A stretch of 61,697 nucleotides of DNA, the filler included, from Stramenopiles sp. TOSAG23-2 (taxonomy: Eukaryota), in assembly GCA_900128395.1 (NCBI GenBank). It is 17 parts of 17 records of this genome, joined end to end, with 100 filler letters (N's around TTAATTAATTAA, not from the genome) between each part and the next. Parts side by side here need not be neighbours in the genome. Positions count along the whole stretch, not along the records: positions 17,517 to 19,006 come from LT652798.1; 16 more parts are not named here. One strand, 5' to 3'. Of this stretch, positions 17,517 through 60,319 are shown piece after piece (position 1 is the first letter of the stretch; each line of letters opens with the position of its first letter). Position numbers and translations under genes: made by a program. The notes below the pieces were generated by a model, which worked only from the letters and a program-made list of their open reading frames with translations, did no database searches and was not told the DNA's origin.

Positions 17517-19006
17517 TTCACAGATGATTTACTTCTTCCATTATTTGTACCACGTAATTCATTCCATTTCTCACGTAATTCACCACATTTTTTAATAATA
17601 TTTGCATTCCACATTGTACCAATTGCTAATAATGTAAAGCCAGTGTAAGTAAAGATAATAGTAAATAAAATACCAATTGGTGATAAATTAAACATATTTT
17701 CATCTGCTAATGGTACGCAATTATCACAATTACATGGTTCCACTTGATCCGGTGGTGTGCCACCTTCAATCGTTTCCTTTACAATGTATTTCAACGTATC
17801 ATTTGATAATTGTGGATATTCTGGCCAATATGGTGGTAACATCCCATCTTTTTCTTGATATTGCCAATCTGCTGGTGCACTGTTGTTTCCAGGTACGCAA
17901 CATGGTATCGTGCAAACAAATTGTGTACTGGATAACAAACAATCTGCACTCCATGATACATTTACACGTGGAAATAAACCATATTGTGCAGAAGGATCAC
18001 CACACCATGGCCATATATTTGTATCATTTAATACATGCCGTGTTAAATCAGCACAGATTAACGGTGCAGCAATCATTGTTAAAATAAATGGTCCATATTT
18101 TTGACAACATGTACCAAAACGATATTTAATACCATTTGCTATAAAGATATTGACAACAATCATCATTGTTACTGTAACGCCAAATGAAATATAATGCCCA
18201 AGTGTTCTAGCAAAACCACTAACAGTTCCACTAACTAAACTAACCACAAGGGCAGGCCAACATCACGCACCAATTAATGCAGGTATCGATAGAACCAGGC
18301 TGTGGTGAATGGTTTGTATTGTGTTGTTAGTAATTTTTTGATTATTATTATTATTATTAATGTTTATTATATATATATAGATATGTTGTATATAGAAACA
18401 AAATTTACATACGTTGCAATCGAAAAGATTAATGATTTACGTTCAGCTGCTTCATTTTCTGTTTTAGAATTTGCTTCATCCTCTGTATCTAATGTTAACA
18501 TGGTTCCGTAAGACGTTGCATCTTCGTCTTCATCACCTAAACTATCTCCATTTAAAGCTTTTTTAATTAAATTATATAAGTTTTCTTCTTTTAAATTTGT
18601 ATCAACAAAACCTTCATTTTGTGTTGTTTTTGAATGTACTAATACGTTATTAATAAACACTTCGAAATTACCAGTAGCACCTTCATCTTTCTTACCAACA
18701 ATATTTAATTGTTTAATATTTCTAATAAACTTTTTTTTTATTTTACCCGCTAAGTCCTCAAACCTAGGGGCGTAACCTCAGTCACCACAATATTGTACAA
18801 TAATGTTTACGTTCTATATAATATGTTGGAATAATAATAATTTATATTTTTTTACGTTAGTAAACATGATATATATATATAGGTACATTGTACATAATAA
18901 CTTACTGGTTTTGCAGATAATGCTTGATATGCATGATCTCTACTTCCACCATTGGATACTACTTGTTTTGCTATCCATGAATCGGATGTATGAATTTGAT
19001 GTGTCG
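17517..19006 (-). CDS. Candidate two-Sec selenoprotein: SelW/Rdx domain fused to a multipass membrane domain; exons 19006-18906, 18813-18413, 18299-17517; both ends truncated
   Basis: Introns 18905-18814 (GTAAGT..TACTAAC..TAG, phase 0) and 18412-18300 (GTATGT..TACTAAC..CAG, phase 2) give one frame. Its only stops are TGA 18780-18778 (VQYCGD*GY) and TGA 18265-18263 (IPALIGA*CWP). Rdx signature GNFEVFINNVLVHSK...GFVD. Confidence 0.85.
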
Positions 19007-19790: not shown

Positions 19791-19831
19791 TGTGATTGCA
19801 TCATCTTGATTATTTGATTTTTTATTTTTTT

Positions 19832-20596
19832 CTACGTGAAATTGACGTATCTCATCCAGCTGCTAAAAGTATGTTGGAATTATCCCGTGCACAAGATGAA
19901 GAAGTTGGTGATGGAACAACTAGTGTTATCGTATTGGCAGGGGAGATGTTGGCAGTTGCACGTCCGTTCCTTGAAAGGAACATGCACCCAATCATCATCG
20001 TACGCGCATACAACCAAGCGTTGCAAAAGGCATTAGAAGTTTGTGAAAGTATGGCAAAAACGGTTGATACATCAAAACGTGAAGTATTGTTAAATGTAGT
20101 ACGTTCATGCGTTGGTACTAAATTTGTAAGTCGTTGGGGTGATTTTTTATGTGATTTAGCATTGCAAGCCGTGCAACAAGTTACCATCGATTTGCCAAAT
20201 GGCAAGAAAGAGATTGATATCAAACGTTATGCAAAAGTTGAAAAATTACCAGGTGGTGATTTAAGTGAATGTAGGGTATTAAATGGCGTCATGTTTAATA
20301 AAGATATTACACATTCTAAAATGAGACGTTCAATTAAAAATCCACGTATTTTACTTTTGGATTGTCCATTAGAATACAAAAAAGGTGAAAGTGATGTGAA
20401 CATCGAAGTTATGAAAGATGATGATTGGGATAAATTATTAGCATTGGAGGAAGATTTCATCAAAGACATGTGTGCTAAAATCATTGCATTGAAACCAGAC
20501 GTTGTCATTACGGAAAAAGGTTTAAGTGATTTAGCACAACATTTTTTAATTAAAGCAAATATTAGTTGTATCAGGCGTATCCGTAAAACCGATAAC
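19832..20596 (+). CDS. CCT3: T-complex protein 1 subunit gamma, internal fragment
   Basis: LREIDVSHPAAKSM, QDEEVGDGTTSV, IDIKRYAKVEKLPGG, LLDCPLEYKKGES, RRIRKTDN. Confidence 0.95.
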
Positions 20597-25897: not shown

Positions 25898-26288
25898 AAA
25901 AAAAAAAGAAAGAGCGATGTGTGTACTGATAATGAAAGAGGGGGGTAACATCAATTAATATCCGTGTACGTCCATACAACAAGTATATATATGAAATCTA
26001 AAGAGAATAATACATATATATATACATCTTCGTAAAATACAGCAGAAGCATATATGGTTTTTATAAAAATATTAATACTGTATGTGTGTGTAAAATCTTT
26101 TTTCTCCGTGTATGTATGTGTTTGTGTGTGTGTGTGATTTCAAACATTGAAGAACGTTCGAATTGTATTTACAATTCATAAGCATAACACTGTTTTATCC
26201 ATTTTTAATTGGTTATAATTGTACGTGTTCTTATACGTATATATACTTTTACAAACTAATACAATAGTCAATACATATAATACAAACA

Positions 26289-28628
26289 ATGGGATTATGT
26301 GCTTCTTCTAGCGCTCCACCTGTTCCACCAGGTGATGCTCATTCAGGAGACAAACTGAATAGCTTAATGAGGAAGACCGTAGCTGACGCTGAAAACGTTA
26401 CCGAAAAAGCTGTTGAGATTATGATGAAAGCAAGAAGACGTATGGTTGTTCATGATCAAGCAACAGCCATCGACAAAAATTTTGTCTTTCCTATGATATC
26501 TAAATCTACTAAAGAACGAAATTTTTTAAGACAATGTTTAGAGGAGACATTTTTTCTCTTTAAAGAGTTAGATACAGACTCTCAAGAGAAAATGCTTGAT
26601 GCTATGGACAAGAAAGACAAGATTGAGACAAGAGACATTATTATTAAGCAAGGTGACGAAGGTGATTTTATGTACGTCGTTGAAGCTGGTCGGTTTGAGG
26701 TATTGAGTGACGATATTAAAGTAGGAACAAAAGGAAAAGGTCAAATGTTTGGAGAGTTGGCATTGCTGTATCAATGTCCTAGAGCTGCAACAATTAGGTG
26801 TATCAGTGGACCTGCCATCCTTTGGAAGCTTGAACGCAAAGTGTTTACCAACATTGCCAATAAAGTCAATGCTGCTGCTTCCAAATCTAACTTTGAGAAG
26901 TTATCAAAATGTGAATTGTTGAAAGATTTACGTCCATCTCAACAACGTGCAATTGCAGATGTATTAGTGCGTAAAGGATATAAAAAAGGGGAAAATATCA
27001 TCTTAAAAGGTGACAAAGGAACAAATTTTTATATCATCGATGAGGGTAGCGTTATTTGCATCAATGATGGAGATAACGGGCAGACAGATCTAGTATTAAA
27101 TGCTGGACAATATTTTGGTGAAATAGCGCTTACGCAAAACGTCCCGCGTCAACGAACAGTTCGTTGTAGAGAAGATACTACCTGCTTAATTTTGGATAAA
27201 ACAGATTTTAACAATTTACTAGGAAATTTACAAGATGCAATCGATGCAAATATGGGACAACGTGTGTTGAAATCTGTGGAAGTATTTAATAGTCTAACCC
27301 CTCATATGCATAATTTGCTAGTCGATGCATTTAAAGAAAGGGTTTATAAAGGTGGTGATACAATTATTAAACAAAACGATGTTGGAGATAGTTTTTTCGT
27401 AGTCAACCAAGGAACCTTGAAATGTTTTGTAGAGGAAGAAGGTAAATTAAAAGATACATCAAAAAGATTTCAATCTGGAGAATATTTTGGAGAGACAGCG
27501 TTGCTAGATGGGAAACCACGTAATGCAACCATTATTGCAGAAGGTGGTCCAAAAGATCGTATTCGTTTATTTCAATTGATGAAATCTGATTTTGATAGGC
27601 TTCTTGGCCCAGTCAAAGCATACATTGAAAAAACATCGCAGGAAAGAAAGGAATTATCAAAGTTAAAAAAGATTGCATTGGATGAATTGAAAGTTATTCG
27701 TAATCTGGGACAAGGTACATTTGGGTTAGTGAAACTTGTTGAATATGATGGCAAACACTATGCGTTGAAATGTTTGCAAAAAAAGCAAATTGTTCGATAC
27801 AATTTAGTAGATAATATTTTATATGAAAAACGAATGATGGAAGAGAGTAATCATCCATTTGTATTGAAACTCATCAATACTTTCCAAAATCAAGATCGAT
27901 TGTATATGATGTTAGAAGTAGTACCTGGTGGTGAACTTTTTGCTTTTTTGCAAACGCGTGGTGGTTTTGTTCCTACCAATCATGCTCGCTTTATTTCAGC
28001 ATGCGTAGTTTCCGTATTTGAATACATGCATTCAAAAGATATTTGCTATCGTGATTTAAAGCCAGAAAATTTAATGATCGATGCGCAAGGCTACATTAAA
28101 ATGGTTGATTTCGGTTTTGCAAAAGTTGTTACTTCCAAAACATTTACGCTATGTGGAACTCCAGAATACATGGCGCCAGAAATTTTATTACGTCGTGGAC
28201 ATAATAAAAGCGTTGACTACTGGGCTACTGGAATTTTGATTTATGAATGTGAAACTGGAAATACGCCATTTGCAGATTATGAAAATTATGATAATGCTGT
28301 TATTTGCCAAAAAATCTTGCGATCGACCTTGAAATTTCCATCTGATATAAACAAAGACGCAAAATCACTGATAACGCGTTTGTTACATCGTGACGTATCG
28401 AAGCGATTCGGATGTATGGCACGGGGTACAAAGGATATTAAGGAACATGATTATTATAATTACGGAAGTTTTAATTGGAATCATTTGATTAGTAAAAAAT
28501 TAAAAGCACCTTATGTTCCTAAAGTTTCAAAAGCCAAAGGAATTTCAACAGAAAATTTCGCTACAGTTCATGCTGATGGAAAAGTTGAACCATTTAATGG
28601 CAATGATGCGGTTTTTTCCGAATTTTGA
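26289..28628 (+). CDS. PKG: cGMP-dependent protein kinase (three cNMP-binding domains plus AGC kinase domain)
   Basis: MGLC acylation motif; three FGE..L...PR.AT-like cassettes; LGQGTFG, YRDLKPEN, DFGFAK, TLCGTPEY; C-terminal FSEF. Confidence 0.93.
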   Translation: MGLCASSSAPPVPPGDAHSGDKLNSLMRKTVADAENVTEKAVEIMMKARRRMVVHDQATAIDKNFVFPMISKSTKERNFLRQCLEETFFLFKELDTDSQEKMLDAMDKKDKIETRDIIIKQGDEGDFMYVVEAGRFEVLSDDIKVGTKGKGQMFGELALLYQCPRAATIRCISGPAILWKLERKVFTNIANKVNAAASKSNFEKLSKCELLKDLRPSQQRAIADVLVRKGYKKGENIILKGDKGTNFYIIDEGSVICINDGDNGQTDLVLNAGQYFGEIALTQNVPRQRTVRCREDTTCLILDKTDFNNLLGNLQDAIDANMGQRVLKSVEVFNSLTPHMHNLLVDAFKERVYKGGDTIIKQNDVGDSFFVVNQGTLKCFVEEEGKLKDTSKRFQSGEYFGETALLDGKPRNATIIAEGGPKDRIRLFQLMKSDFDRLLGPVKAYIEKTSQERKELSKLKKIALDELKVIRNLGQGTFGLVKLVEYDGKHYALKCLQKKQIVRYNLVDNILYEKRMMEESNHPFVLKLINTFQNQDRLYMMLEVVPGGELFAFLQTRGGFVPTNHARFISACVVSVFEYMHSKDICYRDLKPENLMIDAQGYIKMVDFGFAKVVTSKTFTLCGTPEYMAPEILLRRGHNKSVDYWATGILIYECETGNTPFADYENYDNAVICQKILRSTLKFPSDINKDAKSLITRLLHRDVSKRFGCMARGTKDIKEHDYYNYGSFNWNHLISKKLKAPYVPKVSKAKGISTENFATVHADGKVEPFNGNDAVFSEF

Positions 28629-47943: not shown

Positions 47944-48409
47944 AAAATGTATATATTTTAATTATTTTTGCTCCACTACATCCTATTTTTCAAATACAAA
48001 AATAATACCAAACTTCAAAGTAAGAATTTCCGAAAATATAAAGAAAAAAAAATTCCAAATATTTCCTCTAATTTGATAGCATAAAAATGTTCTTGTTANN
48101 NNNNNNNNNNNNNNNNNNNNNNNNNNNNNNNNNNNNNNNNNNTTAATTAATTAANNNNNNNNNNNNNNNNNNNNNNNNNNNNNNNNNNNNNNNNNNNNGG
48201 ATGTGCATAACTTTTATTATTACTGTAATAGATATTGCATGTATTAGAATATACAGTAGAAATAATAATAATAAAAGCGATATAACTCGATCAGCAAAAC
48301 CTTGATATTTTCCCAATGCTAATCGCTACTTACTTACTAATAGGAGATATCATCAATTAAGTATACATCTTTCTTTACATAACAACTTGTACCATCAATT
48401 ATTTTTAAG

Positions 48410-60110: not shown

Positions 60111-60319
60111 AAATGATTTTTTATAAAATAAATTAAAAATGTCAAAAATACGATATATAATATCTCTCACAAATATGTATTTTAAAAGTATGTGTGTCAC
60201 ACATATACAAGCCATGAATNNNNNNNNNNNNNNNNNNNNNNNNNNNNNNNNNNNNNNNNNNNNTTAATTAATTAANNNNNNNNNNNNNNNNNNNNNNNNN
60301 NNNNNNNNNNNNNNNNNNN

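Follow-up and report, generated by a model that had tools for sequence, protein, structure and literature searches.

The 1490-bp contig at positions 17517-19006 of the window (the whole 61,697-nucleotide stretch of DNA that was analysed) likely carries a genuine three-exon gene, transcribed and spliced, from an uncultured, AT-rich marine protist. The gene is read as encoding a selenoprotein in which an Rdx (SelW-like) domain is joined to an MSP-type membrane domain, with one selenocysteine (Sec) codon in each domain. This account, including the best explanation of the fusion given below, is considered probable as a whole.

On the minus strand of the contig, the three exons fall into a single frame once two GT..AG introns are removed (Table 1). 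This is the structure given in the original prediction, which had merged three fragments across two introns with TACTAAC motifs, and it is upheld by direct reading of the strand and by exact joints in RNA. The spliced frame has 427 codons and contains no TAA or TAG. Two in-frame stops are left after splicing. Both are TGA and both lie in the redox motifs to which they had been assigned (CGD-U and GA-U-C-WP). Homologues that lack introns align across the spliced junctions with no gap. Intron 2 interrupts a Thr codon (ac/c) within the first hydrophobic segment. The product of exon 1 contains a ..DSW.. motif that is common to four intron-less homologues (L018, L045, L064 and L028), and exon 1 is found within RNA contigs.

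The start codon, the final 13 codons and the 3' UTR are absent from the window, the last of these as had been anticipated. They are supplied by a related contig, L036, from another assembly. The ATG start codon falls 4 nt past the end of the contig, and L036 has ATG-T directly upstream. The contig itself is one among many pieces of approximately 1.49 kb, and the linkers between pieces have the form N44-TTAATTAATTAA-N44. The neighbouring piece carries CCT-gamma, which has relatives of no named source at 88-100% identity; among named sources, stramenopiles come nearest at about 65% and fungi reach 63%, a difference too flat to assign a lineage.

Table 1. Features of the gene, in positions of the window.
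Feature	Position	Strand	Description
Exon 1 (partial)	18906..19006	-	Codes for an N-terminal extension ahead of the Rdx domain
Intron 1	18814..18905	-	92 nt, GTAAGT..TAG, TACTAAC at 18862-18856
Exon 2	18413..18813	-	Rdx/SelW domain, acidic linker and beginning of the first hydrophobic segment (from translation)
Rdx (SelW-like thioredoxin-fold) domain	18595..18804	-	Pfam match, exon 2 residues 4-73
Sec codon 1	18778..18780	-	TGA in C-G-D-U; position 47 in the full-length product (L036 reading)
Intron 2	18300..18412	-	113 nt, GTATGT..CAG, TACTAAC at 18332-18326
Exon 3 (partial)	17517..18299	-	MSP-type membrane domain; final 13 codons and stop lie past the contig end
Sec codon 2	18263..18265	-	TGA in the invariant P-A-L-I-G-A-U-C-W-P turn; position 182 in the full-length product (L036 reading)
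Hydrophobic segments S1-S4	18029..18435	-	Drawn from charge bias, conserved columns and the helices modelled by AF2 for homologue L112
S1	18435-18266	-	Contains intron 2; U-C turn comes next
S2	18259-18209	-	Followed by conserved R-x-x-G-H at 18208-18194
S3	18193-18128	-	Followed by a basic loop at 18127-18095
S4	18094-18029	-	Carries conserved D-x-x-R-H
Cys-rich loop	17681..18028	-	116 residues, 8 Cys, 5 N-x-S/T sequons; exoplasmic side inferred
Last transmembrane segment	17680-17609	-	Part of 17519..17680
Basic amphipathic C-terminal tail	17608-17519	-	Truncated by the gap

The metagenome contig L036 is 95.7% identical across the whole contig. Its product begins with ATG, is 443 aa long, has Sec at U47 and U182 and ends at a TAA stop, and 423 of the 427 residues encoded in the window are identical in it. 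Compared with L036, identity is 97-100% in the exons and 85-90% in the introns. Intron 1 is 85% identical with an indel of +10 nt, while its flanking exons are 99-100% identical. Compared with L010, exons 2 and 3 are 80-82% identical and the introns 49-57%; exon 1 does not align. Compared with L102, the exons are 69-79% identical and the introns 34-40%. Both TGA codons are retained in all three contigs although adjacent synonymous changes are present, and in the same comparison the sequence 3' of each TGA is under clear constraint.

The two exon joints (18299-18413 and 18813-18906) are exact in contigs from all four poly-A/oligo-dT runs, which belong to four separate studies. Both junctions had been proposed as a pair to look for on one transcript, and two RNA contigs (1509 and 1638 nt) each carry the pair with TGA unchanged. 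Neither TGA is altered by any of the 12 variant positions listed for the RNA contigs. This evidence consists of assembled metatranscriptome contigs and not of raw reads. An odd contig from run X20, in which 18291 is joined to 18727 via 310 foreign letters, was taken as a relative or a chimera.

The exon 2 product matches the Pfam family Rdx (PF10262) with an E-value of 5.1e-13 and a score of 49.5 bits against a cut-off of 22.6, and the match covers positions 2-66 of the 74 in the profile. For the homologue L112, an AF2 model has pLDDT values above 85 at residues 1-90. The N-terminal domain of this model is most similar, among solved structures, to mouse SelW (2npb; Z 12.5, rmsd 1.9 A, 87 of 88 residues), and the next-best matches are 2fa8 and MIEN1. 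The fold test was made on the domain of L112 and not on that of the window. The SelW/Rdx assignment of the original prediction is thus confirmed by the Pfam match, with additional support from the fold of a homologue.

The membrane domain contains five hydrophobic segments and most likely crosses the membrane four times. In the AF2 model of L112, long helices span residues 102-127, 146-175, 184-213 and 261-285. Of all motifs in the family, the stretch between the intron 2 junction and the second TGA is conserved best. The first membrane helix is closed by a G-A-U-C-W-P turn that is invariant. Across the family, the Cys-rich loop is acidic and bears the sequons. In a representative library, 319 relatives of the exon 3 product are found at E<=1e-3. 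No Pfam family is matched by the exon 3 product, and a profile search of solved structures in the PDB with the membrane domain gives nothing below E 0.1. Fold comparison of the domain returns generic helical bundles only (Z <= 7.4), and a search of the ESM Atlas with the database protein P0027 gives no usable match. The Pfam family DUF1218 is matched by one distant member only (E 0.004).

In the portions of the two MSP papers that were available (Lobanov et al. 2007, PMC2375036; Jiang et al. 2020, PMC7539508), MSP is a protein of unicellular eukaryotes that is predicted to lie in the membrane, has two Sec residues and occurs almost solely in the Sec form. The present gene is similar in that it has two Sec codons, a multipass domain, the Sec form, no Pfam model and no known function. 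In addition, the homologue P0257 comes from Chlamydomonas sp. UWO 241, which matches the reported presence of MSP in Chlamydomonas. None of the database matches bears the name MSP. The exon 3 domain fits the published MSP family: the resemblance suggested originally holds for the shared family traits but is not backed by an alignment to any protein named MSP.

No SECIS element is present in the window, where the 3' UTR is absent. It had been described as invisible for that reason, but one is present in L036, which is 96% identical, and in further relatives. In six contigs (L036, L010, L102, L045, L004 and L018), an ATGA-Y, a perfect 8-bp helix and a Y-GAG are located 50-116 nt past the stop. 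The helix sequences differ across the six contigs yet remain complementary (covariation). The apical parts are unequal in length in the three SECIS regions that were compared. An inner ATGA in L036 was rejected as the SECIS; comparison with L010 and L102 points to the outer element. Two crude scanners are positive for 46 and 39 of the 107 downstream regions of the family. In the controls, reverse complements are positive in 7 and 9 of 107 and shuffles in 9 of 107. The Rfam model SECIS_1 has one sub-threshold match in 20 loci (L116, 27.3 bits with a threshold of 35); a miRNA match from the same search is put down to chance. Because Rfam gave only this match, the SECIS calls rest on the pattern scans made here and on covariation. 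Both UGAs would be decoded as Sec through a single SECIS in the 3' UTR.

The reading of both TGAs as Sec is borne out by motif context, RNA and relatives. TGA is found in the membrane motif of at least 120 metagenome stretches. Cys occupies the second Sec site in 5 of the 24 database homologues that display the motif. In 48 database proteins, metagenome gene callers print W at the TGA sites, which would be consistent with reassignment of TGA to Trp. P0231 is the product of locus L077, where its two W residues are encoded by TGA. A reading in which TGA is reassigned to Trp or Cys, or in which the gene is decaying as a pseudogene or arose as a chimera in assembly, is nevertheless extremely improbable and already largely refuted. 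The Trp that adjoins the second Sec codon is encoded by TGG, and a search with a TGG version of the membrane motif matched 50 stretches, with no relative among them. There are only two TGAs among the 443 codons, and both are within redox motifs. The sequence past each TGA is constrained, SECIS elements occur 3' of the genes, and the same layout recurs in RNA and in three independent contigs (L036, L010 and L102). TGA also acts as a normal stop elsewhere in the window, as had been claimed. A 786-aa PKG-like ORF with three cNMP-binding stretches and a kinase domain terminates in FSEF-TGA at 28626-28628, at the conserved C-terminus; its alignment reaches approximately 5 residues from the C-terminus of solved PKGs. 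A tRNA search of the window found none. The locus could also be read as two separate products, a SelW gene that ends in a retained intron 2 (...ISIYI) and a membrane protein that starts after the second TGA. Readthrough of the 5' splice site of intron 2 meets a TAA 15 codons on, and database ORF calls begin right after the TGA. The closest database proteins (P0003-P0006) start a few residues after it, and this is the split that had been expected of ORF-based annotation. Two separate products are given next to no credence, since intron 2 is spliced exactly in contigs of every RNA run and two contigs link all exons. Moreover, the first hydrophobic segment is complete only across the junction, a single ORF holds both domains in intron-less homologues, and the region from the junction to the TGA is the one most conserved in the family.

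The gene is not a one-off. In a tblastn search, 14 loci have the same Rdx domain ahead of the membrane domain, and all of them keep C-x-x-TGA. These 14 loci, out of 120, correspond to 11 of the 95 distinct sequences and have the Rdx domain and the membrane domain with TGA at both positions, which is the outcome that the original prediction had proposed to look for by tBLASTn. The Rdx-fused members fall in two clades. Three changes are needed to place the fusion on the tree, of which the well-supported branches force only one.

A second Cys/Sec motif is present on the contig in 64 of the 95 distinct relatives, and 31 have no second Sec on their own contig. The motif lies in an N-terminal arm with C-x(1-6)-U in 46 sequences, in an Rdx domain in 11 and in a C-terminal C-x(1-3)-U in seven. 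In shifted-frame controls, the N-terminal motif is found in 20-25 of 95. A stricter acidic N-terminal motif, which was defined after data inspection, is found in 42 of 95 sequences in frame versus 1 and 2 in the shifted frames. Fusions to Trx, Grx and TrxR-like domains are also present among the relatives, and Cys-form homologues possess a second Cys pair too. Two Sec residues are normal for the family, and the second was not created by the fusion; most relatives already pair U-C with a C-x2/4-U arm. This arm is short and soluble, and the Rdx domain replaces it in the present gene. Several soluble redox modules are interchangeable in the family, and the Rdx domain is one of them.

The membrane U-C pair may be the fixed redox centre of the family and would cycle between selenenylsulfide and selenol/thiol. 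An exchangeable soluble redox module would service this centre. The Rdx domain would be this module in the present gene. Relatives would have in its place a short acidic C-x2/4-U arm, a tail with C-x-x-U at the C-terminus, or a thioredoxin, glutaredoxin or TrxR-like flavoprotein fused to the protein. This explanation is considered slightly more likely than not; its electron flow, direction, substrate and topology are all inferred, and contact between the domains is untested. The Rdx domain is predicted to be cytosolic and the U-C turn to lie near the outer leaflet beside the Cys-rich loop. The prediction rests on the AF2 secondary structure and on basic charge in three places, namely ahead of the first helix, in the loop and in the tail. 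With the two centres placed in this predicted way, direct contact between them is not evident. The membrane redox relay of the original prediction gains support from module swapping, because the Rdx domain is interchangeable with other redox modules. It remains an inference, and the predicted topology shows no evident contact.

The fusion could be real without any exchange of electrons between its domains. The Rdx domain would then be membrane-anchored like SelT, with substrates in the cytosol or at the membrane surface, and U-C would work with the Cys-rich loop across the membrane. This is compatible with the inferred topology, in which the Rdx domain and tails are cytosolic and the U-C turn faces the exoplasmic leaflet. 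It is also compatible with the AF2 model, in which linker pLDDT is about 60 and whole-model pTM is 0.67. On the other side, the soluble module is always of the thiol/selenol redox kind, whichever its type and at whichever end of the protein, and independent functions would not require this. Cys-form relatives also switch both centres jointly. A fusion without electron exchange is quite unlikely on this evidence. A broader proposal, which is possible but also unlikely, is that MSP is a eukaryotic transmembrane selenol/thiol conduit and a functional counterpart of DsbD/CcdA. Cytosolic modules (SelW/Rdx, Trx, Grx, a TrxR-like flavoprotein or a minimal CxxU arm) would feed electrons to U-C, and U-C would pass them to the Cys-rich exoplasmic loop, to oxidised lipids or to surface substrates. 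If this were true, the long-sought role of SelW-type proteins would be the servicing of membrane-embedded redox centres. The preferred reading remains the more limited one, in which an exchangeable module services the U-C centre.

To our knowledge, neither the SelW/Rdx family nor the MSP family has an established biochemical function. The fusion is a hint that the two families, both still poorly understood, act together. As an expressed and recurrent fusion, it provides a testable hypothesis for both, namely that the Rdx CxxU is the redox partner of U-C. The presence of Trx, Grx, TrxR-like or minimal CxxU modules with the same role in other MSP genes strengthens this hypothesis. The close database proteins are all either fragments that start past the second TGA or proteins in which TGA is read as Trp, which illustrates how genes of this kind are lost in annotation. 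The MSP family has no Pfam model despite hundreds of relatives in marine metatranscriptomes. In the open papers, without supplements and in the parts of them that were available, no Rdx-MSP fusion was found, and MSP occurred only in PMC2375036, PMC7539508 and a table of PMC7435645. A two-Sec 'SelW-like' protein of O. lucimarinus was rejected as a precedent; it is a UxxU SelW.

The Rdx domain of the gene resembles those of the SelW/Rdx family (PF10262; SelW, SelT, SelH, SelV and MIEN1/Rdx12), in which a CxxU opens a thioredoxin-like fold. SelW is a small soluble protein with a single Sec. Unlike SelW, the Rdx domain described here has a 35-residue N-terminal extension and is covalently linked to a multipass membrane selenoprotein. 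SelT is an Rdx-fold CxxU domain that is held at the membrane and has one Sec. Its hydrophobic stretch lies within or beside the Rdx domain, and it has neither an MSP domain nor a second redox centre. Besides U-C, the usual form of MSP has either a CxxU tail at the C-terminus or a C-x2/4-U arm that is short and acidic; a whole Rdx domain takes this place in the present gene.

In DsbD/CcdA and in VKOR-thioredoxin fusions, a soluble thioredoxin-fold module, which is either fused or separate, works beside a Cys pair in a helical membrane domain. These systems are a functional analogy only, as no sequence or fold similarity to the membrane domain was found. MSP differs from them in having an adjacent U-C pair at a helix turn, and transmembrane electron transfer has not been shown for it. 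GST-MSRA of Emiliania huxleyi is a transcript-supported fusion of two selenoprotein families and is termed the first such fusion in the available part of its description (PMC7539508). It is likewise a natural fusion of two selenoprotein families, but the families are different and both are soluble. In animal thioredoxin reductase, the C-terminal GCUG arm is flexible and shuttles electrons between a buried centre and substrates. This arm belongs to a different family. In other MSP members the CxxU arms and tails are similar to it, and in the present gene a folded Rdx domain takes their place.

On the minus strand, read directly, the fusion gene (piece 17517-19006) contains the two canonical introns with TACTAAC branch points that the original prediction described, the second of which divides a Thr codon. 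The three joined exons form the predicted single frame of 427 codons without TAA or TAG, in which the only TGAs are the two at the CxxU and UC positions (U, Sec). The related metagenome contig L036 is 95.7% identical to the entire 1490-bp piece and supplies the missing ends, with an ATG 4 nt beyond the piece and, at the other end, 13 more codons before a TAA stop. Its protein is 443 residues long, Sec occupies positions 47 and 182, and 423 of the 427 window residues are identical to it. Exon 1 (18906-19006) encodes a small motif before the Rdx domain, hydrophobic-x-[ST]-x-D-S/G-W-x-x-K/R, that is common to the whole clade, including L018, L045, L064 and L028.

Features of the window and of related loci (L) and database proteins (P)
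Feature	Position or members	Strand	Details
Intron 1	18905-18814	minus	92 nt, GTAAGT...TAG, TACTAAC 42 nt before 3' end
Intron 2	18412-18300	minus	113 nt, GTATGT...CAG, TACTAAC 26 nt before end
TGA 1 (C-G-D-U)	18780-18778	minus	in-frame in spliced exons
TGA 2 (G-A-U-C-W-P)	18265-18263	minus	in-frame in spliced exons
CCT-gamma (TCP-1) fragment	19796-20596	+	on piece adjoining fusion-gene piece in window
PKG-like ORF	26268-28628	+	786 codons, single exon, FSEF-TGA end at 28626-28628
Artificial chain	1-22286, 48099-48198, 60220-60319		N44-TTAATTAATTAA-N44 linkers
C-terminal thioredoxin fusion	P0177, P0144		MSP-type membrane domain
C-terminal glutaredoxin fusion	P0026, P0281		MSP-type membrane domain
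C-terminal full pyridine-nucleotide-disulphide oxidoreductase (TrxR/GR-like flavoprotein)	P0084		MSP-type membrane domain
Compact Rdx clade	L074, L077, L084, L112		support 100
Window-gene Rdx clade	window gene, L036, L010, L028, L045, L004, L018, L064		support 93

The fusion-gene stretch is present in 20 of the 24 public runs listed; 10 are recorded as RNA, seawater/marine. In each of the four poly-A/oligo-dT runs checked, from four studies, the contigs, which are assemblies and not raw reads, show exact joints of 18299 with 18413 and of 18813 with 18906. Two RNA contigs (1509 and 1638 nt) span exons 1-3 with both joints, placing both predicted junctions on one assembled contig, and overrun the piece at both ends. 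The intron-less form in poly-A libraries is the expected product of spliced mRNA. Both spliced junctions also align gap-free to the intron-less homologues L004, L018, L045, L064 and L028, where an N-terminal extension, Rdx, linker and membrane domain form one ORF. Compared with L036, the exons are 97-100% identical and the introns 85-90%, with a 10-nt indel in intron 1. The gene has more distant versions in L010, 80-82% identical in exons 2 and 3 (exon 1 unaligned) and 49-57% in introns, and in L102, 69-79% identical in exons and 34-40% in introns. The fusion gene is clearly real and expressed.

A 414-nt RNA contig from public run X20 links 18291 and 18727 via 310 other letters; it may stem from a paralogue or a relative, or be chimeric. 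L102 seems to carry an extra intron within the Cys-rich loop (about 2889-2970, minus), and a 28-residue insert in P0004 reflects ORF callers reading through this apparent intron. In L064, the residues past the final membrane segment are unrelated and the frame meets another TGA, for which an unspliced intron or a frameshift in the contig is the probable cause; a SECIS element was looked for at the expected place in this locus and not found.

The in-frame TGAs could be stops, reassigned codons or Sec codons. TGA had been described as a normal stop elsewhere, and the PKG-like ORF bears this out. It combines three stretches for cNMP binding with a kinase domain, can be aligned with solved Plasmodium PKGs up to ~5 residues from their C-terminus, and ends there in TGA, so TGA is a stop in this assembly, with the caveat that this ORF sits on a different contig from the fusion gene. 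Among the 16 window ORFs that reach 200 codons, 9 end in TAA, 4 in TGA and 3 in TAG. Trp is printed at the membrane Sec position in 48 database proteins, as a reassigned codon would be; in the one matched to its contig (P0231, the product of L077), both W residues are TGA. Directly after the second Sec, Trp is encoded by TGG. When the membrane motif is back-translated with TGG, 50 stretches match and none encodes a relative, against at least 120 stretches in the pattern search of metagenome contigs with TGA. Five database homologues have Cys at this position. Both TGAs and the GT..AG ends of intron 2 are preserved in L036, L010 and L102 despite adjacent synonymous changes, and neither TGA is among the 12 variant positions listed for the RNA contigs. 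By these sequence comparisons, both TGAs are Sec codons and neither stops nor reassigned.

The Rfam SECIS model helps little with these protist loci, giving only one sub-threshold match in 20. A conserved 3' UTR element is present in L036, L010 and L102, in which ATGA-Y is followed by an 8-bp helix, an A-rich apex that varies in length, the complementary strand and Y-GAG. Each folds so individually, and the element includes an A-U to G-C exchange. The same ATGA-Y/helix/Y-GAG layout lies 50-116 nt past the stop in L045, L004 and L018, whose helix sequences are quite different, yet perfectly complementary. Two crude scanners find candidates downstream of 46/107 and 39/107 family genes (reverse-complement controls, 7/107 and 9/107; shuffles, 9/107), and textbook SECIS elements are numerous among the candidates. 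The 3' UTR of the window gene lies outside the piece, as originally stated; the element is seen in relatives and not in the window itself. The 1638-nt RNA contig reaches 283 nt past the piece, long enough that it may contain the element.

The short one-Sec MSP forms (~183 aa) of L002, L005, L009, L023, L052, L054, L068, L069, L083, L093, L106, L110, L114 and L119 make up a tight group with textbook SECIS elements ~130 nt after the stop. One of these contigs bears the name human gut metagenome, which makes a gut protist a probable carrier of the MSP family.

Both proposed domain identities are supported. Exon 2 matches Pfam Rdx (PF10262) with an E of 5e-13. An AlphaFold2 model was made of the compact homologue L112, not of the window protein (mean pLDDT 84.5). 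Its N-domain fits mouse SelW (2npb; Z 12.5, 1.9 Å, 87 residues), ahead of an Agrobacterium SelW-like protein and MIEN1. Exon 3 falls into no Pfam family, the PDB offers it no relative by sequence, and its only fold matches are generic helical ones. At E<=1e-3 it has 319 relatives in the representative library. The family hallmark is an invariant P-A-L-I-G-A-U-C-W-P stretch; the following helix carries a near-invariant Arg and His, and an Arg-His-x-x-x-Asp run and a Trp close to the end are likewise near-invariant. MSP has been described as a two-Sec protein predicted to be membrane-bound, backed by a 75Se band and found in Dictyostelium, Chlamydomonas, Volvox and Ostreococcus (Lobanov et al. 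2007, PMC2375036), and is reported to occur almost only in Sec form (Jiang et al. 2020, PMC7539508). One membrane-domain homologue is from a Chlamydomonas species. The exon-3 family fits MSP on these shared features, without alignment to any sequence named MSP. A weak match of P0047, a distant member, to Pfam DUF1218 (E 0.004) raises the possibility that MSP is remotely linked to that plant tetraspan family.

The 120 translated loci give 95 distinct sequences. A complete Rdx domain with CxxU is present in 11/95, so the predicted fusion is shared with relatives. A short N-terminal Cys-x(1-6)-Sec arm lies 38-124 residues ahead of the membrane Sec in 46/95, nearly always with x2 or x4 spacing, acidic residues before and Pro after. 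The loose motif also matches 20-25 shifted-frame controls; a stricter pattern, picked after the data were seen, matches 42/95 in frame versus 1 and 2 in shifted frames. Seven of the 95 have a C-terminal C-x-x-U tail instead of the arm. The remaining 31/95 have no second Sec on the contig, some being truncated and some genuine short one-Sec forms. A second Cys pair is also present in Cys-form homologues. Other MSP-type membrane domains carry C-terminal thioredoxin, glutaredoxin or oxidoreductase domains. Proteins with two Sec are thus the rule in this family, and Rdx belongs to a set of exchangeable soluble redox modules on a constant membrane U-C centre. Loci L115 and L019 are also listed among these C-terminal fusions (TrxR/GR-like, thioredoxin or glutaredoxin), and L115 has a thioredoxin (WCGPC) together with a terminal C-x-x-U tail. 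In the membrane-domain tree, the Rdx forms fall in two clades; a single origin of the fusion is not excluded.

The window consists of many ~1.49-kb pieces and a few longer ones. The chain holds 14 pieces of roughly 1.2-1.5 kb, 13 of them 1490-1494 bp, with sizes falling slowly along it, and the fusion gene fills exactly one. Since the pieces are artificially joined, its neighbours in the window are not its genomic neighbours. GC is ~30% throughout. The CCT-gamma fragment has a 100%-identical full-length protein in public assemblies (P0287) and metagenome relatives at 88-100%. Its nearest named relatives are stramenopiles (~65%), barely above fungi (63%), which indicates an uncultured protist lineage without a close named relative. 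Transcripts of the source lineage recur in marine metatranscriptomes.

Both parent families are already known, and two Sec in MSP are already in print. No mention of an Rdx/SelW-MSP fusion or of module swapping was found in the literature searched, which did not cover subscription papers and supplements. In an algal survey, GST-MSRA is called the first fusion of two selenoprotein genes (Jiang et al. 2020, PMC7539508). The two-Sec SelW-like protein of O. lucimarinus is a UxxU SelW. The Rdx-MSP fusion is useful as a lead to the function of two selenoprotein families that are still orphans.

Because the soluble modules are interchangeable, they may give electrons to, or take them from, the membrane U-C pair. 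This exchange is inferred from fusion alone (guilt-by-fusion) and is only slightly favoured. The first hydrophobic segment has basic residues directly before it, and both the C-tail and the loop that follows the third segment are strongly basic; the long loop, which carries the N-x-S/T sequons, is acidic and rich in Cys. In the L112 model, U-C lies where helix 102-127 breaks off, ahead of a short helix (132-141) that continues into one of 30 residues. The simplest reading, which rests on charge bias and the model and not on coordinates, would place both termini in the cytosol, with four crossings and the U-C turn towards the outer leaflet beside the Cys-rich loop. Module swapping favours the membrane redox relay first suggested, and this topology speaks against a direct relay. 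With U-C near the outer leaflet, the two centres might work independently, or else the U-C centre would be alternately accessible from both membrane sides, by analogy with a DsbD/CcdA-like conduit.
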